DNA from: a virus
Taxonomy: Duplodnaviria; Heunggongvirae; Uroviricota; Caudoviricetes
IMG/VR virus record: IMGVR_UViG_2529292718_000021
Direction: 5' to 3' (one strand)
Length of the DNA: 13,463 bases
The first letter of the stretch is position 1; every line of letters begins with the position of its first letter. Position numbers and translations under genes: made by a program. Positions 2,401-13,463 of the stretch are shown here, one piece after another. The notes under the pieces were generated by a model. The model saw only the letters and a list, made by a program, of their open reading frames with translations. It was not told the origin of the DNA and ran no database searches.

Positions 2401-2619
2401 ATGACAGCACATAACGCAGCGCAATCAGCACTTCCTACTACTGGATACATCCGCCGTTTTCGTATGCCGGAACTTCTGGGTGTTTCCATGCCAACCATTG
2501 ACCGCTGGGTTAAGAACGGCACGCTGCCGCGCCCAGTGAAACTCACCGATAACGTGACCGCCTTTGATGCGGTAGAGATTAATAACTGGCTGGCTGAGCG
2601 CCGGGGAAAGGTGGCGTAA
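2401..2619 (+). CDS. alpA: AlpA-family phage regulatory protein (excisionase-like HTH). Upstream in-frame starts at 2332 or 2356 are possible.
   Basis: Motif IRRFRMPELLGVSMPTIDRWVKNGTLPRPVKL...EINNWL matches the AlpA/Vis HTH pattern (E. coli AlpA: LRLPAV...TIYDWL...FPKP...W.E.EI.EWL). Position directly after int and a cargo gene is typical. Confidence 0.8.
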   Translation: MTAHNAAQSALPTTGYIRRFRMPELLGVSMPTIDRWVKNGTLPRPVKLTDNVTAFDAVEINNWLAERRGKVA

Positions 2620-3053
2620 TGAAAAAGAAAAACCGCCCCGTACAGCAGGCGGCTAACTCAGATATTCGCACGTCTGATATTACGCCGACCACCAGCCCGG
2701 TACAAGTACCTAAGCGTACCCCAAAGAAACACCGCGCCCGCGTCTATATGCTGCGTACTGGTATAGAGGGATGGACAGAAAATGACATTCTTCGCTACTG
2801 CCGTCTGTCTTCTGGTCGTAACTATGCAACAGAGTTAGAACGCCAGCTTGGAATCACTCTGGAGCGTATCGACGAAAAGAATCCTGATGGTATCGGAACA
2901 CACCTTCGCTACCGTTTCTCCTGCCGTGGTGATGTTCTGAAAGTGATCACTCATGTTAACCATCTTGCGAACATAAATGATCACAACGGACTTTCTCAGC
3001 AGGAAATTGCCGACATTCTGAAACTCTACCCGGACGCGTTTAACGCCGCCTAA
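2619..3053 (+). CDS. Hypothetical protein (144 aa), translationally coupled to alpA (TAATG overlap).
   Basis: ORF with SD-like AAGGTGG upstream; basic N-terminus; no family recognised by eye. Confidence 0.7.
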   Translation: MKKKNRPVQQAANSDIRTSDITPTTSPVQVPKRTPKKHRARVYMLRTGIEGWTENDILRYCRLSSGRNYATELERQLGITLERIDEKNPDGIGTHLRYRFSCRGDVLKVITHVNHLANINDHNGLSQQEIADILKLYPDAFNAA

Positions 3054-3065
3054 CGGAGACTGAAA

Positions 3066-3899
3066 ATGAACATCGAAAAAAGCAGATTAATTTCTGAGGC
3101 TGCCCCTCATCTGAACGCCTCTCTGGGCACAATTAACGGTAATGAATTTGCCGCAATTGTCCCGGTTATTCCTGGTCATATCGGTGGGCGTGAAACCAAT
3201 ATTGTTAGCGCAAAAGCGTTACACAAAGCGTTGGGCGTGGGAAAAGACTTCTCTACATGGATCACTGATCGCATCTCTGAATATGACTTCACCATTGGGC
3301 ACGATTACTCAGTCCATAAAACAATTTCCCCAAATTTGGGGAAAAGCCCGAATGGCGCGGCTTACAGCAAGATAAAGCACTCTGGCAGACCCGGCAAAGA
3401 CTATCTGTTAAGTGTCGGAATGGCGAAAGAACTGGCAATGATCGAACGCAATGATCAGGGTCGCGCTATCCGCCGTTATTTCATCCAGTGCGAGGAAGAA
3501 TTACAGCGTACCGTGCCTGAAATCGCCGCCCGCTATCGTCGCCAGCTAAAAGCCCGTATCAGTGCCGCAAACAACTTTAAGCCAATGTGCGATGCGCTGA
3601 ATATGGCCCGTGCCGAGCAGGGGAAAACGACGCAGCAACACCACTACACAAACGAGAGCAATATGATTTCTCGTATCGTTCTTGGTGGGCTAACTGCCAA
3701 GCAGTGGGCGCGGATAAATGGCTATTCTGGCGAACCTCGCGACCATATGAACGCAGAACAGCTTGAGCACCTCTCATATCTCGAAAGCACCAATATCACG
3801 TTAATTGATATGGGCATGGAATATGAGCAGCGCAAAGGAGAACTCACCCGCCTGTCGCAACGCTGGCTCGCCAAGCGTCTGGAGGTAGTCAATGTCTAA
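3066..3899 (+). CDS. Phage antirepressor (AntA/P22 Ant-like N-terminal domain, KilAC-type C-terminal region).
   Basis: N-terminal SAKALHKALGVGKDFSTWITDRISEYDFTIGHDY matches the AntA antirepressor signature; length 277 aa; RBS GGAGA upstream. Confidence 0.8.
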   Translation: MNIEKSRLISEAAPHLNASLGTINGNEFAAIVPVIPGHIGGRETNIVSAKALHKALGVGKDFSTWITDRISEYDFTIGHDYSVHKTISPNLGKSPNGAAYSKIKHSGRPGKDYLLSVGMAKELAMIERNDQGRAIRRYFIQCEEELQRTVPEIAARYRRQLKARISAANNFKPMCDALNMARAEQGKTTQQHHYTNESNMISRIVLGGLTAKQWARINGYSGEPRDHMNAEQLEHLSYLESTNITLIDMGMEYEQRKGELTRLSQRWLAKRLEVVNV

Positions 3900-4074
3900 G
3901 CCAACAGGAACACCACAACCACAAAAACGCTACAAAGATGCCCACGGAGCACTCGTTACTGTCGAAAGCGTGTCTCACAACCGAGTGACGTTTTATCGCG
4001 ACGGGTATCAATCGCCATGCGTACAACCGCTGGCACGTTTCATGAAGGAGTTCGCGGAGGTTAACAAATGCTAA
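3892..4074 (+). CDS. DUF4222-like small prophage protein (60 aa), start overlapping the antirepressor stop.
   Basis: Translation ...HGALVTVESVSHNRVTFYRDGYQSPCVQPLARF... fits the DUF4222 pattern as remembered; translational coupling. Confidence 0.6.
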   Translation: MSKPTGTPQPQKRYKDAHGALVTVESVSHNRVTFYRDGYQSPCVQPLARFMKEFAEVNKC

Positions 4075-4505
4075 CCGTCCAGAAGAAGACATTTTCACTG
4101 GCAGGTATGTCGCCAAAATCCAGCAATATGACGGCAAAGTCAGGCATTAATACAGCAGATACAAGCAAAGTTTATCATTTGCTGGTGGTCGGAACGGATG
4201 CCTTAACCATACCAGAAATCTCGGGCGATGATATTAGCATTGAGAAGGTCAGCGGCTGCGCCAGAAAATTTCTGGTCGTAGATGATGTCTTCCGCTCGTG
4301 TAGTGACTCCACAAAAACATTCGTCCACGTGCGTGACGTTAACGAAATGAGCGCGATGTACTGTGCATCTGGTGCTTCCAATACTGAGTTTTCGGAGTCC
4401 ATAAAAAAGAGCTTGCCGTTATGCGGCAACACGGTTTATGGTTATAAGGCACCTCATAAAACGGGTGCCGGGATTAGGACCCCGCAGGCAATCGAGGCGA
4501 TACAT

Positions 4506-4526
4506 GACGCGCCAGCGTCTTTTTTT
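4506..4526 (+). terminator. Candidate intrinsic terminator inside the immunity-like leader upstream of the Icd-like gene.
   Basis: Stem GACGC (4506-4510) / GCGTC (4515-4519), loop GCCA, followed by seven T at 4520-4526. Confidence 0.4.
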
Positions 4527-4534
4527 GTATCGGC

Positions 4535-4665
4535 GCACACGCACACCTTATCAATGGTGGGCTGTATGGGGCTGACTTCGGTCAGGCTGGTTTCCTTGAT
4601 TGCCAGTAGTCCTAACCCTGTACAGTCCACCGCCAGCGAGCTTAGGACCTCCGGCGGTGGCTATA
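4535..4665 (+). ncRNA. Candidate structured leader / antisense-RNA-type immunity element (C4/CI-like), tentative.
   Basis: UUCG-tetraloop hairpin CTGAC-TTCG-GTCAG at 4572-4585; 8-bp complementary pair CCACCGCC (4627-4634) / GGCGGTGG (4653-4660) immediately before the Icd-like RBS. In P1 and P4 the icd/immunity genes are preceded by a processed antisense RNA. Coordinates approximate. Confidence 0.25.
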
Positions 4666-4690
4666 AACCATCAATCAAGGAGGCTGCCAC

Positions 4691-4885
4691 ATGCTGGCTA
4701 CTACCCCTACCCAAAAACCGCAATTTATCTGGATTATCGCCGCAGTTCGCCGCGATTGCCCGACAATTACCGCCAAAATTCATCATATTGCTGCCGAGTC
4801 TGAACGCGATGCTCGCCGTTCTCTGGTGCGCGATCACGTCTGCTTTTTTGCTGGTCGTATCCGCATGGAGGTGGCACATGATTAA
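4691..4885 (+). CDS. icd: Host cell division inhibitor Icd-like protein (64 aa).
   Basis: Perfect SD AAGGAGG 7 nt upstream; translation QFIWIIAAVRR...ESERDARRSLV..FFAGRI fits the Icd-like pattern (F.W...A.RR...ARR.L...FAAR) as remembered. Confidence 0.75.
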   Translation: MLATTPTQKPQFIWIIAAVRRDCPTITAKIHHIAAESERDARRSLVRDHVCFFAGRIRMEVAHD

Positions 4886-5096
4886 AACCTACGATGTGCA
4901 TATGGATCCCCTCGAACGCACAAGCCAGATCATCACACTGACAGAAGTGATTAACGACATTCTGGTGAGCAACTCTCCCTCACGAGACGAAAGACTGAAG
5001 GCGTTACTCGCGATATTGGATCTCGCCGTTCGTGACGTTCATTTCCTGCTGGAAGGTGGCGAAATGCCAGTAAAAACGGGGGCAACCAATGAATAA
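4878..5096 (+). CDS. Hypothetical small protein (72 aa), overlapping the icd stop by 8 nt.
   Basis: SD GGAGGTGG upstream of ATG 4878; helical, protein-like translation. Confidence 0.6.
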   Translation: MIKTYDVHMDPLERTSQIITLTEVINDILVSNSPSRDERLKALLAILDLAVRDVHFLLEGGEMPVKTGATNE

Positions 5097-5283
5097 CTCA
5101 ATTAATACCCCTCGCCTTACGTCCGCACTTCAATTAATCGAGCAAGCAGCGGCTGTCCTGGTTGCTGTCAGTCTTTCGGCTGAAGAAATGGACGCTGCTG
5201 ATGTCGTGGATGCGATTAAAGCGTGCTCATCTTTGGTTAACGATGCCCGTGCAGAGCTGGTAATTCTTGGTGGTGAAAAATGA
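5089..5283 (+). CDS. Hypothetical small protein (64 aa), translationally coupled.
   Basis: Start overlaps the preceding stop; G-rich SD-like tract upstream. Confidence 0.6.
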   Translation: MNNSINTPRLTSALQLIEQAAAVLVAVSLSAEEMDAADVVDAIKACSSLVNDARAELVILGGEK

Positions 5284-5543
5284 ATATCAACTTAATTTAT
5301 CGTCATCCGTGTGAGCTGGAAATTGAATCATTGCTGGGGCGTGAAGAGCCATATCCAGACACATTTACTCCCGCAGATTGCGCGACTGAACGGCTTACCA
5401 GAGCGCGCACAGGTCTGGTTCATGTGATGAATGAGATTATTCCCTCGGTGGGAGGGGAACAGGCGACAGTAATCAATAGCTGGCTACAAAAAGTTACCTC
5501 CCTGATAGATATCAGTTTAATCGATGTGGAGAGTGCGAAATGA
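5280..5543 (+). CDS. Hypothetical small protein (87 aa), ATGA start/stop overlap.
   Basis: SD GGTGGTG upstream; coupled to neighbours. Confidence 0.65.
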   Translation: MNINLIYRHPCELEIESLLGREEPYPDTFTPADCATERLTRARTGLVHVMNEIIPSVGGEQATVINSWLQKVTSLIDISLIDVESAK

Positions 5544-5761
5544 CCAACATCCAGCTCATTGAAGCGCAATGTCGCATCGAACAGGTTCAGACTGTTTTAG
5601 GGTTCTGGCTTGAAGGGGCCGGCTCAAGCAACAGAGACAAGTTAATGATTGGCGCGGTTATGTCACTACTCAATGGCGTACCAGAAGCTATTCAGGAAGC
5701 GGACGAATTGTTGGGCAAATATGAGTTACAGAATCATTCAGGCGAGGCGAAACATGAATAA
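5540..5761 (+). CDS. Hypothetical small protein (73 aa), ATGA overlap.
   Basis: SD GGAGAG upstream; coupled to neighbours. Confidence 0.65.
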   Translation: MTNIQLIEAQCRIEQVQTVLGFWLEGAGSSNRDKLMIGAVMSLLNGVPEAIQEADELLGKYELQNHSGEAKHE

Positions 5762-5839
5762 TTTCTTAACTTTCCATGCAGAAGCAACGCCTGACGGCGT
5801 AAACATCATGTATGGCAGCAGAAATCAGAGAGGTAAAAC

Positions 5840-6686: not shown

Positions 6687-6840
6687 CAAAAACAGCGATT
6701 TTCTTTATAAGGTATGTTTTGCTCATCTGGCAGACGGAGGTATTCGCTGCGGTTTGGCACATAGCCCAGAACAGCAAAGAGTTTTACGAGACTTTTGTAA
6801 AATCCAGTGTACAAGGGCGTGACGTTTTTGAAGGTGAGCA

Positions 6841-6857
6841 CTACGAAATTTTCGTAG
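6841..6857. repeat. Perfect palindrome CTACGAAA-T-TTTCGTAG; candidate protein-binding site.
   Basis: 8-bp arms are exact reverse complements, read directly. Confidence 0.5.
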
Positions 6858-7051
6858 TTCAAAAAATAGCCTCTGAGATGTTGTTATGCCTGTTCAGCAA
6901 ACCATCCGCATAGCTGATCGCGAATCAAATTACCAATGGAGCCAGAAGCAAGGGCAGAACTGGAAAGCGCCTGCCGTGAAGAGTAATGCGACTCCATAAA
7001 TATAGTTTTTAGAGTCCATAAAAAAACTGTCAAAACCTGACATACAGAACG

Positions 7052-7084
7052 ATGCCACCAGCTACTGAACGGTGGCATTTTTTT
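7052..7084 (+). terminator. Rho-independent terminator.
   Basis: 8-bp stem ATGCCACC (7052-7059) / GGTGGCAT (7071-7078), 11-nt loop, followed by a T-run at 7079-7084. Confidence 0.7.
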
Positions 7085-7117
7085 GTGCTATTTGTTTCAT
7101 ATTTTGCAATCACAATG

Positions 7118-7146
7118 ATGAATGTTGCGTTTTATGAAACTATAAT
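7118..7146 (+). promoter_or_regulatory. Candidate sigma70 promoter for the RHH/447-aa/705-aa operon: consensus -10 TATAAT at 7141-7146 with a weak -35.
   Basis: Perfect TATAAT hexamer about 35 nt upstream of the ATG at 7181; strong SD AAGGGGGG at 7169-7176; directly downstream of a terminator. Confidence 0.35.
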
Positions 7147-7180
7147 GACTGTTGTTTTATACAGTTCTAAGGGGGGCGTT

Positions 7181-7354
7181 ATGGCTATTTCAGTAAAGCC
7201 AGTATTGATAAGTGAGAAGCAAATGGAAGCGATAAAGAAAATTCAGGAGGAGCAGCGTAAAAAATCAGAGGTAGGAGTTGCGCCAACGATCCACGAAATT
7301 GCTCGGGGATTAATGGATAAGGCGCTGGCTTACACTTTAACTGGACGTGGGTAA
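7181..7354 (+). CDS. Small protein (57 aa), putative ribbon-helix-helix-like DNA-binding protein; first gene of the operon.
   Basis: Strong RBS; N-terminal beta-strand-then-helix pattern (ISVKPVLISEKQMEAIKKI) is consistent with an RHH fold. Fold assignment is a guess. Confidence 0.55.
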   Translation: MAISVKPVLISEKQMEAIKKIQEEQRKKSEVGVAPTIHEIARGLMDKALAYTLTGRG

Positions 7355-7358
7355 ATTT

Positions 7359-8702
7359 ATGGCTACGTGGCAACAGGGTATTAATTCTGGTGGTTTTCTG
7401 GCTGGCATCGGTGCGCAAAATGAGAATGCGCCAAAGGCAAGCGACATTAACGCAACGCTTGGTCTGATCCGCGAAAACAATGAACTGGCTCGCTCAGGTG
7501 CAAATAACGTTGCTCTGACAGGTCTTCGTGGTCTGGCTGGAGTTGCTGACATTTATAAGCAGCAGCAACAGCAGGAACGTAAAGCGGCATTCCAGAAAGG
7601 TTATGCAGATGCTTATGCGTCCGGTGACAGGGAGCAGATGCGTAATCTTATTACAGCATTCCCAGAAGAGTTTGAGGAAGTCCGTAAAGGGATGAGTTAT
7701 GTCGATGATGCTCAAAGGGATGATTATGGCAATCTGGCGCTCAAAGCACAGGTAGCCTCATCGCTTGGTCAGGGCGCATTTGGCAGGTTCATGATGGATA
7801 ATGAGCAGGAGATGCGTCGTTTAGGTATCCCTCCAGAAACTATTGCTGAAATGCAGGTTAATGACCCGCAGGGCTTCCAGCATTTCGCAGGTAATCTGGC
7901 GCTGTTTTCTCTCGGTCATGAGAAGTATTTCGATATCAAAGATCAAATGGAAGGTCGTCGACTTGAGCAAGGGCGACTGGATGAAAGTATGCGTCAGGCT
8001 GACATGGAGAACGCGAGAGGATGGGCAAATATCCAGAACGCTCAACTAGACAGGGCTCAGCGAGCACAAATTCACTCAGATGAGATGGGATTGAAGCTAA
8101 TGGAGCTGGGGCAAAAAGGTAAGCCGTCAGCAGACTTAATTAAGGGATTAAATTCTGACATTACCAATTTTGGCAAAAATTATAACTCTGTCAGAGCGGC
8201 GGCAAACTCTCTGCAAGCCCTTAGCAAGGTAAATACTGGCGCTGCCCAACTTGGGATTATCTTCAACTACATGAAATCTCTTGACCCGCAGTCAGTCGTT
8301 CGTGAAGGCGAACAGGTTCAGGTAATGCGGTCTGATGGCATATGGGGACAAATCAAAGGATACATAGACCAGCTTAATGCTGGAAACGGCCTGTCGCAGG
8401 AGGCAAAGGATAACATTGTTAACGCCGCAAAAATCAACGCCAATGCTATGGGGCAGCAGTTTAACCAGCAGGTTGACGAGTATCTCGATACATATGGAGA
8501 AACTATTCCTCAGGGGCTAAGAAAAAGCCTTGAAAGAAGGAAAGCGAAGCTATTTGACGATGTTTCCGGGCAGCCTACATCACAGGCTGGCACTGGACAG
8601 GCAAAAGCGGCAACCGGAGGAATATCAGAAGGCGCAACGGCAACCAACCCTAAAACTGGTCAGAAAATCATTTACAGGAACGGAAAATGGCAGCAAATGT
8701 AA
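7359..8702 (+). CDS. Large hypothetical protein (447 aa from ATG 7359; 451 aa if GTG 7347 is used). Gln/Asn/Ala/Gly-rich, predicted coiled-coil, no catalytic motif seen.
   Basis: Long ORF; poly-Q tract (QQQQQ); no Walker A, no HxH or other enzymatic signature by eye. Confidence 0.8.
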   Translation: MATWQQGINSGGFLAGIGAQNENAPKASDINATLGLIRENNELARSGANNVALTGLRGLAGVADIYKQQQQQERKAAFQKGYADAYASGDREQMRNLITAFPEEFEEVRKGMSYVDDAQRDDYGNLALKAQVASSLGQGAFGRFMMDNEQEMRRLGIPPETIAEMQVNDPQGFQHFAGNLALFSLGHEKYFDIKDQMEGRRLEQGRLDESMRQADMENARGWANIQNAQLDRAQRAQIHSDEMGLKLMELGQKGKPSADLIKGLNSDITNFGKNYNSVRAAANSLQALSKVNTGAAQLGIIFNYMKSLDPQSVVREGEQVQVMRSDGIWGQIKGYIDQLNAGNGLSQEAKDNIVNAAKINANAMGQQFNQQVDEYLDTYGETIPQGLRKSLERRKAKLFDDVSGQPTSQAGTGQAKAATGGISEGATATNPKTGQKIIYRNGKWQQM

Positions 8703-10804
8703 TCTTACCGGAAGGTTTTGTGCTCGATGAACAACCTGATAACTCACAGTTTCCTGATAGTTCACAGCTTCCTGATGGTTTTGTGCTTGATGCCCAACCA
8801 GAACAGCAGCAATCACCTTTGGTTTCACCAGAGGAAAATTCCAGACAGGAAAATGTTGTTAATAATGCTAACGGTTTCGACCGTTTTATGTATGGCGTTC
8901 TCAGTGGATTGATGGATGTTGGTAAAGGTGTTGGCCTGTTTCAGGATATGACACCAGAAGAGCAAGCCGCAATTCAGTCTCTACAGCAGAAGTTAGCGGC
9001 AAAACCATCAACCGCACAAGATGTTGGTGAGTTCGTTGGACAAGCAGCGCCATTTGTTAGTGGTGGTGGGATTATTTCTCAGGTTCCCAAAGGGGCGGCA
9101 AGACTGGCTGCCGCCGCAGGGCTTGGGGCTGGAGAAGGGGCTATTGTAGCCAATGGAACAAATAGCGATGTTGCTTCCGGCGCTGCTATTGGCGCTGTGG
9201 CTGGCCCTGTAGCCGAACTTGCTGGCCCTGCAATTAATAAAATAGCTGGGAAATTAACCAAGAAGAATGTTTCTTCGATTCCAGATATTGAGGGGATTAC
9301 TCCTACCGAAGAGAAAATTCGTAAGTTATCTGCACAAGGCAACCCAAATCTTGCCTCTTCGCTTGAAGGGCTAGATCTAAAACCTCAGAAAGAAATTGTT
9401 GAGGCTGCAAATAGGCTTCATGTTGATTCAGTTCTTCCTTCTCATTTATCAGGAAATGAGCAATACCAAGCTGTAGAGCAAGCCCTAAAGTCACGGACAG
9501 GATCAGCGTTAAAAGCTCAAGAAGATAAAGCAATAAGCGAATTAGCCTCTAGTGCTGGCAAGATAATCGATGATGTTGCTGGTGCGCCAGATGCGTTAGC
9601 TATGAGCGAAAAATATATTTATCAGATAAATAGTAGAATGGAAGCACTAAAAAACCGTAGTGATCAGTTATATAAACGTGTTGATTCCGCTCTATCACCA
9701 AGAACAAAAGTCGAAGCAAATAACACAAGCACTATGCTGGAAAAAATCGCTGATGATTTAGGAGGGTGGGATAATCTTGACCCAATAGAAAAGCGAGTTT
9801 TTACAGCAATAAACCCCGGCCCAGATAGCATCCTAACGTATGCAAATTTAAACAGGCAAAGGCGTTTAGTTGGTGATGCCCTAAATAAAAAGCAGGGGCC
9901 ATACAAAGATGCTGATAAAGAAGCGCTATCAAGACTATATGGAGCTTTAGCTGAAGACCAAAAATCTGTCTTATCCAATACTGGATACTTGCGAGATTTC
10001 GAAGTCGCACAACGCCTTGTAGCTATGAGAAAAAACTTAGAAAGGCAAATGGTAAATCTTCGCGGGAAAACACTTAATGGGGATATAGCGTATAAAGTAA
10101 CGAATTCTCTTCAATCTATGGCAAAAGGTGATGCGAGAGGGTTTCGTGAGATTATGCAAAATACTCCATCAAGAACATTGCGAAGGGAGCTAGTAGGAAC
10201 AGCATTAAGAGATATGCTTTCCTCTGGGAAGCGTGGGGCCGACTTTAATCCATCTGGCTTTGCAGATTGGTGGCAAAACTTGCAACACAGTGGACAGCTA
10301 AAGACTTTGGCTGAACATTTGCCAAAAGAAACAATGAGCGGACTATATGATGTATACAAAGTTGCCAGAGCAATAAAAAATGCTAAAGCGCATGAAATAT
10401 CTACTGGTAAGCTGAATGAGTTTGTAAACAGATTTAATCGGGTAACAGCTCCATACGAACTAGCAGCAAAACACATTCAAAAAATAGGCACGATGGTACG
10501 CGCTCATTTTGGATCGCTTGGAGCCATTGCTGGGGCTGATATTGGAGCAAGATTGGCGAGTAAAGCTCGATTAGCTGGTGGAGCAGGGGCGGCTGATGCT
10601 GCGGATAAATTAATTGCCTCGCCAGCCTTCCAGAGCGCAGTAAAAAATCTACACGGAAAAGCGCCTGGGCACATTGTTGATTCACGTATCAGGCGCTCCC
10701 CTCAATGGAAGAGTTTTTTTAACTCTCTTCCTGAACAGGAAAAACGGACCATCGCCAGACTGGGCATCATTACTTGGCTATCTAATGATCCAGATAATGA
10801 CTAG
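8687..10804 (+). CDS. Large hypothetical protein (705 aa), start overlapping the upstream gene by 16 nt. Has an N-terminal tandem peptide repeat and Gly/Ala-zipper-like segments; the gene is compositionally mosaic.
   Basis: Repeat LPEGFVLDEQP / LPDGFVLDAQP (DNA repeat GGTTTTGTGCT[C/T]GATG at 8714-8729 and 8777-8792, 63-bp period); segments such as AAAAGLGAGEGAIVANG and GSLGAIAGADIGARLA; the 5' third is near backbone GC while the 3' ~1.5 kb is clearly AT-richer. Confidence 0.85.
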   Translation: MAANVILPEGFVLDEQPDNSQFPDSSQLPDGFVLDAQPEQQQSPLVSPEENSRQENVVNNANGFDRFMYGVLSGLMDVGKGVGLFQDMTPEEQAAIQSLQQKLAAKPSTAQDVGEFVGQAAPFVSGGGIISQVPKGAARLAAAAGLGAGEGAIVANGTNSDVASGAAIGAVAGPVAELAGPAINKIAGKLTKKNVSSIPDIEGITPTEEKIRKLSAQGNPNLASSLEGLDLKPQKEIVEAANRLHVDSVLPSHLSGNEQYQAVEQALKSRTGSALKAQEDKAISELASSAGKIIDDVAGAPDALAMSEKYIYQINSRMEALKNRSDQLYKRVDSALSPRTKVEANNTSTMLEKIADDLGGWDNLDPIEKRVFTAINPGPDSILTYANLNRQRRLVGDALNKKQGPYKDADKEALSRLYGALAEDQKSVLSNTGYLRDFEVAQRLVAMRKNLERQMVNLRGKTLNGDIAYKVTNSLQSMAKGDARGFREIMQNTPSRTLRRELVGTALRDMLSSGKRGADFNPSGFADWWQNLQHSGQLKTLAEHLPKETMSGLYDVYKVARAIKNAKAHEISTGKLNEFVNRFNRVTAPYELAAKHIQKIGTMVRAHFGSLGAIAGADIGARLASKARLAGGAGAADAADKLIASPAFQSAVKNLHGKAPGHIVDSRIRRSPQWKSFFNSLPEQEKRTIARLGIITWLSNDPDND

Positions 10805-10809
10805 TGAAT

Positions 10810-10823
10810 GGCCACGGATGGCC
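10810..10823. terminator. Short inverted repeat GGCCA-CGGA-TGGCC between the convergent 705-aa and membrane-protein genes; weak candidate terminator.
   Basis: 5-bp GC-rich stem followed on the + strand by moderately T-rich TCAATCTTTATTCTTT. Confidence 0.35.
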
Positions 10824-11249
10824 TCAATCTTTATTCTTTGAAATAGAGTCATTGATCTTTTCGAAACACCAATGAAATCCACAAAAGAGAGCTACACCAA
10901 TATAACAATACAAAACTATCAACCACCTTTCAGTGTCCGAAGGGTAAAAAACATCAATTACATAAGCAACACCAATTGGTATTAATGCTAGTAATAACAT
11001 CGACACAGGACGTACAAACTTCTGAACTATATCAATTTTATAGAACCACAAGGCGGTATGTTTAATGATATAAGTAAAGATGGCTGCGCCAATAATGGCA
11101 AAAAACACCATCGATAAAGTCGGGTATAACTTTGCGACAATTAAACCCAACAAAATAATTATAACTGCCTGCCCCCTCACACCAACCCTCCCTTTAGCTT
11201 TGTTTAGAATGGCAATCATCATATATCCAAGACATGGCATTTGGTACAT
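10824..11249 (-). CDS. Integral membrane protein (141 aa, about 4 predicted TM helices), AT-rich, convergent with the 705-aa gene. An in-frame GTG at 11180 preceded by GGGAGGG may be the true start.
   Basis: Four hydrophobic stretches of 18-21 residues (AVIIILLGLIVAKLY, LSMVFFAIIGAAIFTYII, VSMLLLALIPIGVAYVIDVFY, WLIVLYCYIGVALFCGFHW); low GC. Confidence 0.75.
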   Translation of the reverse strand: MYQMPCLGYMMIAILNKAKGRVGVRGQAVIIILLGLIVAKLYPTLSMVFFAIIGAAIFTYIIKHTALWFYKIDIVQKFVRPVSMLLLALIPIGVAYVIDVFYPSDTERWLIVLYCYIGVALFCGFHWCFEKINDSISKNKD

Positions 11250-11295
11250 AGCTTGGGTCGGGATTTCAAATCCGCTCCCCGTTGATGGGGCCGTT

Positions 11296-11442
11296 ACAGT
11301 ACGCGCATATCCGCTTTATGTGAAACAGGAAGATTTTTCTGATATCACTGTCACAGCAAAACACCAATTTCGTGACCAGTACGCGCGCGAGGTGTATCAG
11401 TTGCAAAATTTTTTGCAGCTGTGTCCGACCAGTACGCACGCG
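11296..11442. repeat. Three degenerate copies of a GC-alternating motif (ACAGTACGCGC, ACCAGTACGCGCGCG, ACCAGTACGCACGCG) plus palindrome TGCAAAA-TT-TTTTGCA at 11402-11417, in DNA with no convincing gene.
   Basis: Motifs at 11296-11306, 11375-11389 and 11428-11442. They fall in different reading frames relative to the overlapping ORF 11080-11478, so the repeat is at DNA level. Confidence 0.55.
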
Positions 11443-11660
11443 ATGGCGGGGAGCACCATAAAACTGTTCTCTACATAAGACAGAGTGGTGGTGATGTGTT
11501 GATTATCGGCGTATATGCGCACAGGACGCGCTATGACGATGTTTTATGCGGGTACACCAATCACATGTATCTGGTGTGATAAATCGCGTTACATGACCTC
11601 TCATGTTGTGCTGGTGGTTATCACGACGTTCTGAATCTGGCCTTTGCCTGATATTTTGCG

Positions 11661-11680
11661 ACAAGTACGCGCGCGTAGCA
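11661..11680. repeat. Well-conserved copy of the ACAAGTACGCGCGCGTAGCA element, containing the perfect 12-bp palindrome TACGCGCGCGTA.
   Basis: Near-identical to the copy at 13030-13050 including flanks (TTTGCG-ACAAGTACGCGCGCGTAGCA). Confidence 0.6.
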
Positions 11681-11703
11681 TCGACAGCATACACATTGGA
11701 TAT

Positions 11704-11983: not shown

Positions 11984-12439
11984 TTATACGCTGACCTTAC
12001 AATCAATCACCGCTTTTAACTTTTCAGCATTGCTTCCCTGACGCTTCCACGCGCTGTAAATATCTTTATCCCACGCTTTACCAGCTTTTGTTTGATAGCC
12101 TGCTTCATTGATCCGTTCAGCTATCACACGCCCATTATCAAATCCCTGTCGGATGGTATCGGCAATGATCTTTATAACTGCCGTTTCGTTATATGGCTTT
12201 GGTGGGATGTTCGGCTTTCCGGCAATAAGCGACGCAGCGGCTTTTTCCATGCGCTCCACCAGCCCAAGCATTCGTGAATCAATAGACTTTTTCGGCTGTC
12301 CCAGCTTCATGCGAATCGCATCAACAAGCCAGGAGGTTTTATCTCCTCCAGAAGCGAGAACAGACCGATTAAACTCATCCTGCAATTCAGATGGGATGCG
12401 GAACGCGACCAGATTAGATTTGCTCATTGCAAAGACCAT
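11984..12439 (-). CDS. Ribbon-helix-helix (Arc/Mnt/CopG-like) DNA-binding protein with a C-terminal extension; putative repressor. Alternative start at 12427.
   Basis: N-terminal NLVAFRIPSELQDEFNRSVLASGGDKTSWLVDAIRMKL follows the Arc/Mnt RHH pattern (compare P22 Mnt FNFRMPMEVREKL...); palindromic operator-like site immediately upstream. Confidence 0.7.
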   Translation of the reverse strand: MVFAMSKSNLVAFRIPSELQDEFNRSVLASGGDKTSWLVDAIRMKLGQPKKSIDSRMLGLVERMEKAAASLIAGKPNIPPKPYNETAVIKIIADTIRQGFDNGRVIAERINEAGYQTKAGKAWDKDIYSAWKRQGSNAEKLKAVIDCKVSV

Positions 12440-12456
12440 ATCAGTGAGTAATATCC

Positions 12457-12475
12457 ATACAGTATACCACTGTAT
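12457..12475. promoter_or_regulatory. Palindrome ATACAGT-ATACC-ACTGTAT upstream of the RHH gene; candidate operator.
   Basis: 7-bp arms are exact reverse complements; a related ACACTGTTATAC follows at 12477-12490. Confidence 0.45.
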
Positions 12476-12541
12476 AACACTGTTATACGCTCAAATATCA
12501 GCCAGAAAATAACGGACCAATCACAAATCTATCGCTGTGTT

Positions 12542-12592
12542 GTTGGTTCAGAGCTGGGCTGTGTTGGTTCAAAATGAGTTGATGTTGGTTCA
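12542..12592. repeat. Three direct GTTGGTTCA iterons spaced exactly 21 bp apart.
   Basis: Copies at 12542-12550, 12563-12571 and 12584-12592. Confidence 0.7.
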
Positions 12593-12635
12593 ATATTTCA
12601 GAAAAAACACAATAAAAACAACAATCTTTACAAAT

Positions 12636-12662
12636 TGAACCAACTGAACCAACTGAACCAAC
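12636..12662. repeat. Three tandem TGAACCAAC 9-mers (reverse complement of the upstream iterons), separated from them by an AT-rich spacer and overlapping the -35 region of the perC-like gene.
   Basis: Copies at 12636-12644, 12645-12653 and 12654-12662; AT-rich 12593-12635. Confidence 0.7.
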
Positions 12663-12685
12663 ACCTTTTTGCTTATCTATATAAT
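12654..12685 (+). promoter_or_regulatory. Candidate promoter of the PerC-like gene: consensus -10 TATAAT at 12680-12685, -35 embedded in the last TGAACCAAC repeat.
   Basis: TATAAT hexamer 14 nt upstream of the ATG at 12699, SD GAGAGG in between; non-canonical spacer. Confidence 0.35.
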
Positions 12686-12698
12686 CTGAGAGGCAGAA

Positions 12699-12980
12699 AT
12701 GATAAGGGACAGGAAAGCTGAAGAGCTGGAGTCAAAAGGGCTATACCGGAGAGCTGCCGCACGATGGATGGAAGTCATGCTGTTATGCACCGAGGACGAT
12801 GATCGGGAATGGATAAAGCGCCGCCGTGAAACGTGTCTGGAGAACGTGAAGCGCCCGCCCGTGAAGGTTGAGGAATTTGGCGACCTGCATAAAGCTGTTA
12901 CCGAAACGCAACACCGCATGGGGATAGCGCAACCGAACGGTAACGCCTTCCGGTTAAATGGCGGCAAGAGGCAAAGGTAG
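12699..12980 (+). CDS. perC: PerC-family transcriptional activator (93 aa).
   Basis: N-terminal MIRDRKAEELESKGLYRRAAARWMEVM matches the conserved PerC/Pch N-terminus as remembered. Confidence 0.8.
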   Translation: MIRDRKAEELESKGLYRRAAARWMEVMLLCTEDDDREWIKRRRETCLENVKRPPVKVEEFGDLHKAVTETQHRMGIAQPNGNAFRLNGGKRQR

Positions 12981-12984
12981 ACCA

Positions 12985-13006
12985 CCAGAGGGAAATCATC
13001 CTCTGG
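12985..13006 (+). terminator. Hairpin CCAGAGG-N8-CCTCTGG downstream of perC; weak candidate terminator.
   Basis: 7-bp perfect stem, followed by moderately U-rich CTGGCGGTTTCTGGTATTT. Confidence 0.35.
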
Positions 13007-13029
13007 CTGGCGGTTTCTGGTATTTCGGG

Positions 13030-13050
13030 ACAAGTACGCGCGCGCGTAGC
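13030..13050. repeat. Second well-conserved copy of the ACAAGTACGCGCGCG(CG)TAGC element, containing the perfect 14-bp palindrome TACGCGCGCGCGTA.
   Basis: Matches 11661-11680 including flanking bases. Confidence 0.6.
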
Positions 13051-13277
13051 ACCCAATCGGTGAGGAAATAGCGGCGACCTGAATGGTCAAAATCACAACG
13101 CAGCTATCCCCGTAAGCAGCGCTTAACGGAATAGCAGTAACCTGAATCCAGTGGGGAGGGGGTAGTCAAATCTCTACAGCCCTGACTATCCGGGACTGCC
13201 CGCCCCATCGTTTTTTTATACCCGCAAAAAATGAAATTTAATCCGGGCGTGTTTCATCCTTCCAGAGGGTATGACGT

Positions 13278-13463
13278 ATGACACCACGCGAAATAGCCTT
13301 ATTGACCATCGCCAAACTTGAGCACGGAGGCCACCAGCTTACACAGGCAGATCAACGGGAGATAGAACGCTCAGTTAATGCCGATATAGCCCGGCGCGAC
13401 AGGTTCCGCGAAATGATGCGAGCACCTGCCTACCAGTGGAAGAAGCCAGCGCCGCGCAGGTAG
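13278..13463 (+). CDS. Hypothetical small protein (61 aa).
   Basis: SD AGAGGG 8 nt upstream of the ATG; complete ORF ending at the window edge. Confidence 0.55.
   Translation: MTPREIALLTIAKLEHGGHQLTQADQREIERSVNADIARRDRFREMMRAPAYQWKKPAPRR

Follow-up and report, generated by a model that had tools for sequence, protein, structure and literature searches.

The 13,463-nt stretch of DNA held as IMG/VR record IMGVR_UViG_2529292718_000021 (here called the window) can be assigned from its sequence to an EcCIMP1-like phage-inducible chromosomal island (PICI) of Escherichia coli, a satellite of P22-like podoviruses. In it, genes homologous to P22 ejection genes 20 and 16 precede a convergent gene for a small membrane protein, at the position that sieA occupies in P22 (the sieA slot). 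A genuine recombination joint was found inside the gp16 gene at nt ∼9207 (codon ∼174), and the membrane gene is an independently swappable, moron-like cassette in the sieA slot. Taken as a whole, the reading we favor, at a probability of roughly 0.65, is that of a PICI with a two-module gp16 and a separate slot cassette, the product of which most likely excludes P22-like phages. The genes concerned are the following.

7347-8702, + strand: gp20 homologue, 451 aa; start GTG 7347 (RefSeq-style start, ATG 7359)
8687-10804, + strand: gp16-type ejection ("DNA transfer") protein, 705 aa; overlaps gp20 by 16 nt
10805-10823: inter-stop spacer, 19 nt; short GC hairpin GGCCACGGATGGCC, then a T-rich tail on the + strand (seen directly in the sequence)
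10824-11180, − strand: slot gene, 118 aa, four hydrophobic segments; start GTG 11180
11181-11500, − strand: conserved slot leader/5′ region, common to islands with different slot coding sequences

Identification of the ejection protein genes

The 451-aa product matched the gp20 families PF16928 (Inj_translocase; E value, 2.5e-73) and phrog_917 (4e-132) and is annotated as a "phage DNA ejection protein" in E. coli genomes. From its family matches and gene order, the 705-aa gene that follows can be identified as encoding a gp16-type phage DNA-ejection protein. It matched phrog_6704 (1.3e-174) and phrog_770, "DNA transfer protein" (1.6e-50), and homologues were found at the gene-16 position, after gene 20, in the Lederbergvirus phages Kapi1, E212, and Sf101 and in the metagenomic P22-like contigs L012, L017, L018, and L019; the gene 20-gene 16 order is identical in P22. 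BLASTP gave no significant alignment of the 705-aa protein with P22 gp16 itself, and the Pfam family PF26808 (Phage_P22_gp16) was unmatched; P22-like gp16 proteins are mutually only 22 to 26% identical (PMC10883804). The hairpin GGCCACGGATGGCC and T-rich tail in the spacer could possibly act as the terminator of the ejection-gene operon; a consensus terminator scan around the slot did not detect the inter-stop hairpin.

Recombination joint and exchange units within gp20 and gp16

The initial annotation of this region, made from base composition, had placed a mosaic junction inside the 705-aa gene, and a joint does lie within ∼100 nt of that place. It was located from a nucleotide identity profile in 60-nt windows against the P22-like phage contig L017, which encodes the gp16 homologue P0018. 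Identity was 75 to 92% over 7347-7946, rose to 95 to 100% over 7947-9206 with a sharp drop on either side, fell to 45 to 72% over 9207-9386, and was 55 to 87% (mostly 67 to 82%) over 9387-10766. The resulting units are listed below.

7347-7957, + strand: gp20 N-terminal domain, island-backbone type; 98% nt identity to the sister island ISHS7, with similarity gone after 7957
7947-9206, + strand: co-inherited block, gp20 C-half (aa ∼201-451) plus gp16 N-module (aa 1-∼174)
8687-9206, + strand: gp16 N-module, aa 1-∼174; Gly/Ala-rich, predicted flexible; GC at first codon positions (GC1), 0.69-0.70; source of the backbone-like GC
9207-9346, + strand: hypervariable linker/recombination junction, aa ∼175-220
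9347-10804, + strand: gp16 C-module, aa ∼221-705; confidently predicted all-alpha domain

Synonymous divergence (dS) from L017 was 0.73 for the gp20 N-half, 0.03 for the gp20 C-half, 0.11 for the gp16 N-module, and ∼3.5 for the gp16 C-module (71% overall nt identity), a rise of more than 30-fold across the ∼9207 joint. The helper-type phage Kapi1 shared 89% nt identity over 7941-9207. At the protein level, gp16 aa 41-140 were 100% identical to Kapi1 and E212, with identity down to 15 to 30% after aa ∼180. The linker had the lowest identity versus every relative (15 to 45% aa), and past aa ∼220 the best relatives were Sf101 (windows of 45 to 82%) and L012 (mostly 55 to 80%), the C-module being 63% aa identical to Sf101 gp13. 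These comparisons indicate that recombination at the domain linker (∼9207-9346) brought together a Kapi1/HK620-like N-module and an Sf101-like C-module.

The joint coincides with a predicted domain boundary, as the confidence of the AlphaFold2 model changes at aa ∼227: the predicted local distance difference test score was <50 for most of aa 1-226 and >90 for the all-helical aa ∼231-585, bar short dips. By sequence, the 705-aa protein had only chance-level myosin matches in the PDB; a Foldseek search of the AlphaFold2 model against the PDB returned nothing at an E value of ≤0.001, and PADLOC had no match for the protein. The ratio of nonsynonymous to synonymous divergence (dN/dS) was 0.05 to 0.19 where dS was not close to saturation (N-modules versus Kapi1, E212, L017, and L012; C-modules versus L017 and L012), and 0.52 at a dS of 1.7 in the E212 C-module comparison.

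The units of exchange are thus the gp20 N-domain, the gp20 C-half with the gp16 N-module, the gp16 C-module, and the slot gene. In P22, the part equivalent to the gp20 N-domain binds to gp7 and makes up the outer-membrane and PP1 segments, and residues 186-435 of gp20 build the lower periplasmic barrel and the plinth on the cytoplasmic membrane; an AlphaFold3 prediction models gp20 PP3 together with gp16 residues 1-205 (preprint 10.64898/2026.09.03.749273). The co-inherited block matches the gp20 and gp16 parts placed together by that model. It also fits the need to swap both genes, since replacement of P22 gene 16 alone or gene 20 alone with its Sf6 homologue gave no plaque-forming phage and replacement of both gave plaques (PMC10883804). 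The breakpoints would then fall between interaction units, and we infer from the modeled contact that co-inheritance and gp20-gp16 interaction may be linked.

Independent reassortment of the gp16 modules

The survey of modularity covered 120 homologue clusters. The C-module was present in all 120 (27 to 99% identity) and the N-module in 17, and the C-module was joined to at least four unrelated N-terminal architectures. In ∼100 clusters it stood behind an unrelated N-terminus carrying PF26808 and/or an SLT transglycosylase domain, or neither; PF26808 itself sits in the N-terminal parts of many proteins having this C-module. Identities of the two modules were decoupled in individual homologues.

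P0018: N-module 99%, C-module 74%
P0102: N-module 94%, C-module 27%
P0112: N-module 83%, C-module 27%
P0021: N-module 66%, C-module 63%

The N- and C-modules therefore reassort independently. As both halves reassort, the arrangement is not the variable C-terminus on a conserved N-terminus that had been suggested for this gene; it is the C-module that is found throughout the family.

Decay variants of the cassette occur in some E. coli (P0019, P0020, and P0061), with an integrase Arm domain or the gp20 N-terminus fused to the last 320 to 414 aa of this gp16.

The sieA slot and its interchangeable cassettes

In P22, gene 16 is followed by the convergent sieA 22 nt on. The window has the same geometry, with 19 nt between the stop codons and the slot gene on the opposite strand. 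A homologue of the 118-aa protein (P0008; 48% identical) lies between gene 16 and arc/mnt/ant in phage contig L012, and a type-2 relative occupies the same slot of a P22-like prophage. In the published SieA survey, sieA was located in P22-like prophages in every case examined in detail (PMC10883804).

The slot leader (∼11177-11500) was 90 to 97% identical in ∼535 of 5,426 complete E. coli genomes, of which only 87 had the coding sequence. Homology of the window resumes at 11177 with the sister island ISHS7 and at 11118 with U13A, and the same leader and GTG start were found upstream of the type A, B, C, and SieA-type coding sequences among the following island types.

Type A (window, enterotoxigenic E. 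coli [ETEC] H10407): gp20 of 451 aa, gp16 of 705 aa; convergent 118-aa membrane protein
Type B (U13A, D8, A10): gp14, gp7, gp20 of 473 aa, gp16 of 701 aa; convergent second membrane protein, distantly related to that of type A
Type C (ISHS7): gp20 of 488 aa, gp16 of 701 aa (95% aa identity to type B); convergent 132-aa signal-peptide protein
Type D (G749, 005008, MP1 [EcCIMP1]): gp14, gp7, gp20 of 439 aa, transglycosylase-domain gp16 of 906 aa; co-directional 232-aa lipoprotein, no convergent gene
SieA-type (Z1323CEC0016, contig L020): gp20 of 488 aa, gp16 of 701 aa (B/C type); convergent 204-aa SieA homologue, 4167-4781, − strand

The slot protein of L020 is a SieA homologue, with a BLASTP E value of 8e-08 against P22 SieA, an RYPGEA motif, and a match to phrog_7745. 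An Abi-family gene lies just beyond it.

The slot gene is exchanged separately from its neighbor. The gp16 proteins of ISHS7 and U13A are 95% identical and their slot genes wholly different: homology between the two islands is lost 17 nt past the gp16 stop codon and is regained ∼20 codons into the type-2 sequence, at the 5′ end of the slot gene. More broadly, one gp16 type (≥90% nt identity, 418 genomes) precedes at least three slot genes (type-2, type-3, and SieA-type), and 124 of the 418 genomes carry the type-3 (type C) gene. The cassette breaks 17 to 19 nt after the gp16 stop codon and, at its other edge, at the slot start codon (in the type-2 allele, ∼20 codons inside). Phages with related C-modules had in this slot a 277-aa tail-anchored protein, a signal-peptide protein with a lipoprotein, mnt, or nothing before the tailspike. 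All slot genes examined were AT-rich (GC, 0.33 to 0.43), and nearly all encode envelope-targeted proteins. AT-richness is the usual mark of accessory "moron" genes.

Four virion genes (gp14-like [DUF2824], gp7-like, gp20, and gp16) were present in L005, L008 to L011, and L016, and only gp20 and gp16 in the window and ISHS7 types. Because the latter islands carry only these two, their gp20 N-domain would need the gp7 of the helper. The EcCIMP1-type cassette (L010 6196-6894, + strand; L011; L016) encodes the 232-aa lipoprotein, with lipobox LLAGC, behind a transglycosylase gp16.

The 118-aa slot protein

The slot open reading frame (ORF) can be extended to an ATG at 11249, which would give 141 aa. 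This longer reading was rejected in favor of GTG 11180. A GGAGG at 11191-11187 lies 6 nt ahead of the GTG, sister alleles and RefSeq annotations use this start, homology with sister alleles stops at or near it, and all members of the family (P0008 and P0137 to P0144) begin at the equivalent residue; on these grounds a product of 118 aa is likely. Hydropathy plots gave three clear peaks, and a fourth hydrophobic segment (aa ∼24-40) was called from the sequence and is resolved in the L012 homologue. The product is read as a putative inner-membrane protein, and the basic loop KHTALWFYKIDIVQKFVRP together with the charged C-terminal tail (a positive-inside pattern) suggests an N-in/C-in topology.

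The family is tiny, with 13 clusters among 1.84 billion representative proteins, and a tblastn search of 50,697 phage records found no match. No match at threshold was obtained in the Pfam, NCBIfam, or PADLOC libraries, and the alternative slot proteins were likewise unmatched by PADLOC. Two sub-threshold matches were recorded, to Bax1-I (Pfam; 23.8 bits, cut-off 34.1) and CBO0543 (NCBIfam; 23.7 bits, cut-off 35).

Base composition across the region

The fall in GC content that first drew attention to the region is real, with some qualifications. Total GC was 0.475 over 8687-9298, 0.424 over 9299-10804, 0.357 over 10824-11249, and 0.479 in the remaining window, so the first ∼600 bp of the 705-aa gene were correctly described as close to the backbone. 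A maximum-likelihood single change-point over 8687-11249 fell at nt 9232, where GC changed from 0.495 to 0.408 (permutation P of ∼0.016). The profile is non-monotonic: the first 180 nt of the 705-aa gene had a GC of 0.417 and the last ∼300 nt climbed to 0.51-0.53. Other parts of the window were equally AT-rich (1500-2400, ∼0.40; 6750-7350, ∼0.40-0.42; 12450-12750, 0.377).

Analysis by codon position confined the shift within the 705-aa gene to first positions. GC1 fell from 0.66 to 0.55 (Fisher P = 0.005), with a change-point at nt 9233 (P = 0.005); no shift was found at second positions (GC2; P = 0.74) or at third positions (GC3; 0.324 versus 0.299; P = 0.53), and there was no GC3 change-point in the gene (P = 0.34). 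Because the shift sits only at first codon positions, where the N-terminal segment is Gly/Ala-rich (G, A, P, and R make up 46% of gp16 aa 101-200), the step is one of amino acid content, and the return to higher GC in the last 300 nt has the same cause. It reflects the composition of two protein domains and carries no signature of a donor genome or mutational background. The proposal that the GC drop was itself a sign of separate acquisition does not survive this check, and the step was rejected as a foreign-DNA boundary.

The whole 705-aa gene is AT-rich at synonymous sites, with the lowest GC3 of all genes in the window (0.307). The membrane gene is the most AT-rich by total GC (0.350 over 10824-11180), ∼2.5 standard deviations under the mean of 300-nt windows, and has the second lowest GC3 (0.35). 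Across gp20 and gp16 taken together, the GC3 change-point fell at nt 8487, upstream of the 705-aa gene start (0.46 to 0.31; P of ∼0.001). This position, ∼200 nt before the end of gp20, is inside the block that is 98 to 100% identical to L017 and matches no detected joint.

Weighing of alternative explanations

The initial annotation had proposed that the C-terminal part of the large protein and the membrane gene moved as one cassette, as in toxin/immunity or receptor-binding/exclusion systems. Recast for this locus, the gp16 C-module and the membrane protein would be a co-adapted ejection/exclusion pair, the latter sparing or targeting the C-module of its neighbor. The gp16 type and the membrane family are indeed adjacent in two independent contexts, the island and L012 (gp16, 61%; membrane protein, 48%), and the block replaced relative to sister islands runs from gp20 aa ∼204 to the slot-gene start and includes both genes. 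L012 is, though, the sole independent second pairing found, and physical linkage would equally explain it. The same or close C-modules otherwise adjoin unrelated downstream genes: the closest phage relative of the 705-aa gene (L017; 79% aa identity overall) is followed by an unrelated 277-aa gene, Sf101-type phages and prophages with C-modules 63 to 72% identical have mnt or other genes there and lack the membrane gene, and the single gp16 type found with three kinds of slot gene shows the same decoupling within islands. Differences between type B and type C gp16, that is, between type-2- and type-3-linked alleles, cluster at 298-340, 594-626, and 691-693, but these patches are drawn from one type-3 allele only, and physical linkage by itself would be expected to produce them. 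Mutations by which P22 escapes SieA are located in the C-terminal parts of gp16 and gp20, yet SieA types A and B showed no target specificity experimentally (PMC10883804). We consider a cognate pair unlikely. The idea of exclusion itself keeps some standing through the position of the membrane gene in the sieA slot; what falls away is its paired travel with the C-terminal domain. A toxin/immunity system was rejected, as a toxin domain is lacking, the partner gene runs in the opposite direction, and the two do not covary.

Recent acquisition of the whole AT-rich stretch from a donor of lower GC, with the compositional mosaic as a signature of amelioration, appears improbable. It would account for the two lowest GC3 values of the window lying in the 705-aa and membrane genes and for the significant GC3 change-point, and C-module homologues do occur in lower-GC Enterobacterales (Proteus, Providencia, and Xenorhabdus). 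That change-point, however, lies within the near-identical gp20-C/gp16-N block, away from every detected junction, and GC3 does not differ across the 9.2-kb joint; in the majority of the P22-like phages compared, GC3 is lower for gene 16 than for gene 20, which makes low GC3 look like a trait of the gene, and the Ile, Leu, and Phe codons of membrane proteins raise their AT content at the first and second codon positions. Equally little weight can be given to the 118-aa protein being a holin/antiholin-like lysis-timing factor, or another membrane moron unrelated to the exclusion of entering DNA. Small size, several hydrophobic segments, and the charged C-terminal tail EKINDSISKNKD are generic holin features, and the weak Bax1-I and CBO0543 matches point the same way, but both scores are under curated cut-offs and explicable by hydrophobic composition alone. 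No endolysin or spanin gene is nearby, the slot gene is transcribed against the late ejection-gene operon, and its leader and start codon are shared in sister islands with a SieA homologue and with non-holin (periplasmic) proteins.

Proposed mechanism and superinfection exclusion

The island gp20 and gp16 genes are intact, downstream of and co-oriented with the AlpA-controlled genes. On helper induction, their products would be loaded into capsids built by the helper. The gp16 N-module is inherited with the gp20 C-half, its predicted contact at the foot of the periplasmic channel, and the C-module, predicted to be a folded, all-helical domain, would work at the cytoplasmic membrane. The slot gene would be expressed from the constant leader (GGAGG and GTG 11180) of the resident island, and its product would act on the gp20/gp16 conduit of incoming P22-like phages to stop their DNA from being delivered, as SieA does. 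Exclusion is the most likely role for the 118-aa protein because its gene lies in the sieA slot and is allelic, in sister islands, with the gene for a true SieA homologue; by this analogy the role is plausible.

Several observations weigh against the reading. The 118-aa protein has no similarity to SieA: BLASTP against P22 SieA gave an E value of 2.1, hhalign of the membrane family against a SieA A+B profile gave a probability of 0.1%, and the FxRYPxEAxxFNK motif and a match to phrog_7745 are absent. None of the defence families in PADLOC was matched by it. A σ70 consensus scan around the slot gave no convincing signal (3 sites versus 4.7 expected), with none on the slot-gene strand. EcCIMP1, in which immunity was measured, has a transglycosylase gp16 and a co-directional lipoprotein and no convergent slot gene. 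Lastly, the gp20 gene of ETEC H10407 (L001 12359-13702) contains an internal stop codon, and the island copy in the window, which is without a primase, may be decaying.

In published experiments, excision and transfer of EcCIMP1 required the P22-like helper phage Kapi1, and the island conferred additional superinfection immunity against that phage, by a mechanism left unexplained by its authors (PMC11773190). As the EcCIMP1 cassette differs, this phenotype is not directly transferable to the window island; the 232-aa lipoprotein is a candidate for the EcCIMP1 immunity.

A wider and more tentative proposal, which we hold to be possible but doubtful, is that the slot is a plug-in site, in which a constant leader and start serve interchangeable, mostly nonhomologous envelope proteins (the 118-aa membrane family, the second membrane family, the periplasmic protein, and true SieA), all blocking the incoming gp20/gp16 conduit, and in which the island gp20/gp16 alleles let satellite particles enter protected cells. 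If so, satellites would be carriers of diversified entry-exclusion proteins, and this would hint at where to seek the EcCIMP1 immunity, though EcCIMP1 is without a convergent slot gene.

Relation to known systems

The closest parallel is the gene 16/sieA locus of P22 (Leavitt et al. 2024, mBio; PMC10883804), which has the same order of gene 20, gene 16, and a convergent small membrane gene ∼20 nt on, and a similarly AT-rich slot gene (GC of 0.337 for P22 sieA and 0.350 in the window); sister islands have a true SieA homologue at exactly this position. The window locus differs in that the 118-aa protein resembles SieA types A to C in neither sequence, profile, nor motif and has four closely spaced hydrophobic segments, whereas SieA has an N-terminal helix, ∼50 soluble residues, and a C-terminal helix cluster; in the gp16, which cannot be aligned with that of P22 by BLASTP and lacks the Phage_P22_gp16 match; and in being in a satellite island rather than a prophage.

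EcCIMP1 (Pick, Stadel, and Raivio 2025, ISME J; PMC11773190) shares Ant, DUF4222, Ash/isrK-C4, small ORFs, the slot leader, and PerC with the window, and has an ejection-protein module at the corresponding place. Its integrase/AlpA end is different, the window is without a primase, and its ejection cassette (gp14, gp7, gp20 of 439 aa, 906-aa transglycosylase gp16, and lipoprotein) contrasts with gp20, gp16, and a convergent membrane gene in the window. The EcCIMP1 paper labels the ejection genes as "DNA transfer" or morphogenesis candidates and does not discuss a sieA-like slot (PMC11773190); it was the only paper returned by a literature search for satellites described as bearing ejection proteins, and it does not recognize the genes as ejection genes.

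Earlier accounts of P22-like phages (Casjens and Thuman-Commike 2011, cited through PMC10883804; review by Swanson et al. 2022, PMC8954989) place genes 16 and 20 with the virion genes that vary most and whose relations are most mosaic, and they describe the swapping of functional domains from one ejection protein to another. The ∼9207 joint is one such case, to which are added here the gp20 C-half/gp16 N-module unit, with breakpoints at nt ∼7950 and ∼9207, and the circulation of alleles between satellites and phages. Polymorphic toxin/immunity and receptor-binding/exclusion cassettes likewise have a multidomain gene with a joint and a small variable gene after it, but the small gene in the window is convergent, follows a constant leader of its own, and is exchanged without the C-terminal domain, and no toxin domain is present.

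The element family, the mosaic nature of ejection proteins, and the sieA locus have all been published before, and overall the case is one of common phage mosaicism with a single, modestly new twist. What is new is the precise module map, the near-identity of a satellite and a phage contig over the gp20-C/gp16-N block, the sieA slot in satellites, and a candidate non-SieA exclusion family. A vague compositional signal has become an exact map of the exchange units of the P22-type DNA-delivery machine; satellites and helper-type phages trade ejection-protein alleles (95 to 100% identity in 60-nt windows over 1.26 kb); and the sieA slot exists in satellites, sometimes with a real sieA. The tiny, uncharacterized membrane family is a testable candidate superinfection-exclusion protein, and an exclusion function, if true, would help to explain both the variability of ejection proteins and the protection of lysogens by satellites.

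The island backbone and neighboring features

The gene order of the window is tyrosine integrase, AlpA-like regulator, Ant antirepressor, Ash-like region, small ORFs, gp20, gp16, convergent membrane gene, and PerC, with integrase, AlpA-type regulator, and PerC being hallmarks of EcCIMP1-like PICIs. Family searches identified no capsid, terminase, or lysis genes in the window, leaving gp20 and gp16 as its sole structural genes. The backbone was shared with EcCIMP1 of E. coli MP1 (nt identity of 93.5% over 2609-5820, 93.3% over 6778-7329, 95.4% over 11255-11684, and 97.1% over 12541-13463), and nt 7000-11500 were 99.9% identical to many E. coli chromosomes, ETEC-type strains among them. Further features are listed below.

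1-1320: integrase ORF
1329-1395, + strand: int-alpA RNA (Rfam RF02996, 66 bits), between the integrase gene and a 293-aa ORF
2332-2619: ORF for an AlpA-like helix-turn-helix protein, called from its sequence, with the int-alpA RNA upstream
4449-4525, + strand: isrK RNA (Rfam, 63 bits), inside the 342-aa "Ash family" ORF 4068-5096
4550-4637, + strand: C4 antisense RNA (Rfam, 80 bits), inside the same ORF
7181-7354, + strand: 57-aa ORF directly before gp20; no significant family match
11984-12439, − strand: 151-aa protein heading the leftward gene set upstream of the slot gene; weak phrog_30270 match, none significant
PerC: PF06069, 3.7e-30

The window has no replication primase (TOPRIM/DUF927 or DUF5906). 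Compared with the island of ETEC H10407, it lacks at ∼5811-5820 a stretch of ∼3.26 kb with a 200-aa ORF, the DUF5906 primase, and a small ORF, and the matching blocks on either side overlap by ∼10 nt at the junction. From this gene content, the island copy in the window is probably unable to replicate on its own. The 293-aa ORF (1414-2295; GC, 0.41) is not present in ETEC H10407 or EcCIMP1. The N-terminus of the 151-aa protein resembles a ribbon-helix-helix DNA-binding fold, and the protein may be a regulator of the slot or the operon. The 342-aa Ash ORF may be partly noncoding, and the isrK/C4 region may represent an RNA-based immunity or regulatory module like the C4 of P1 and P7.

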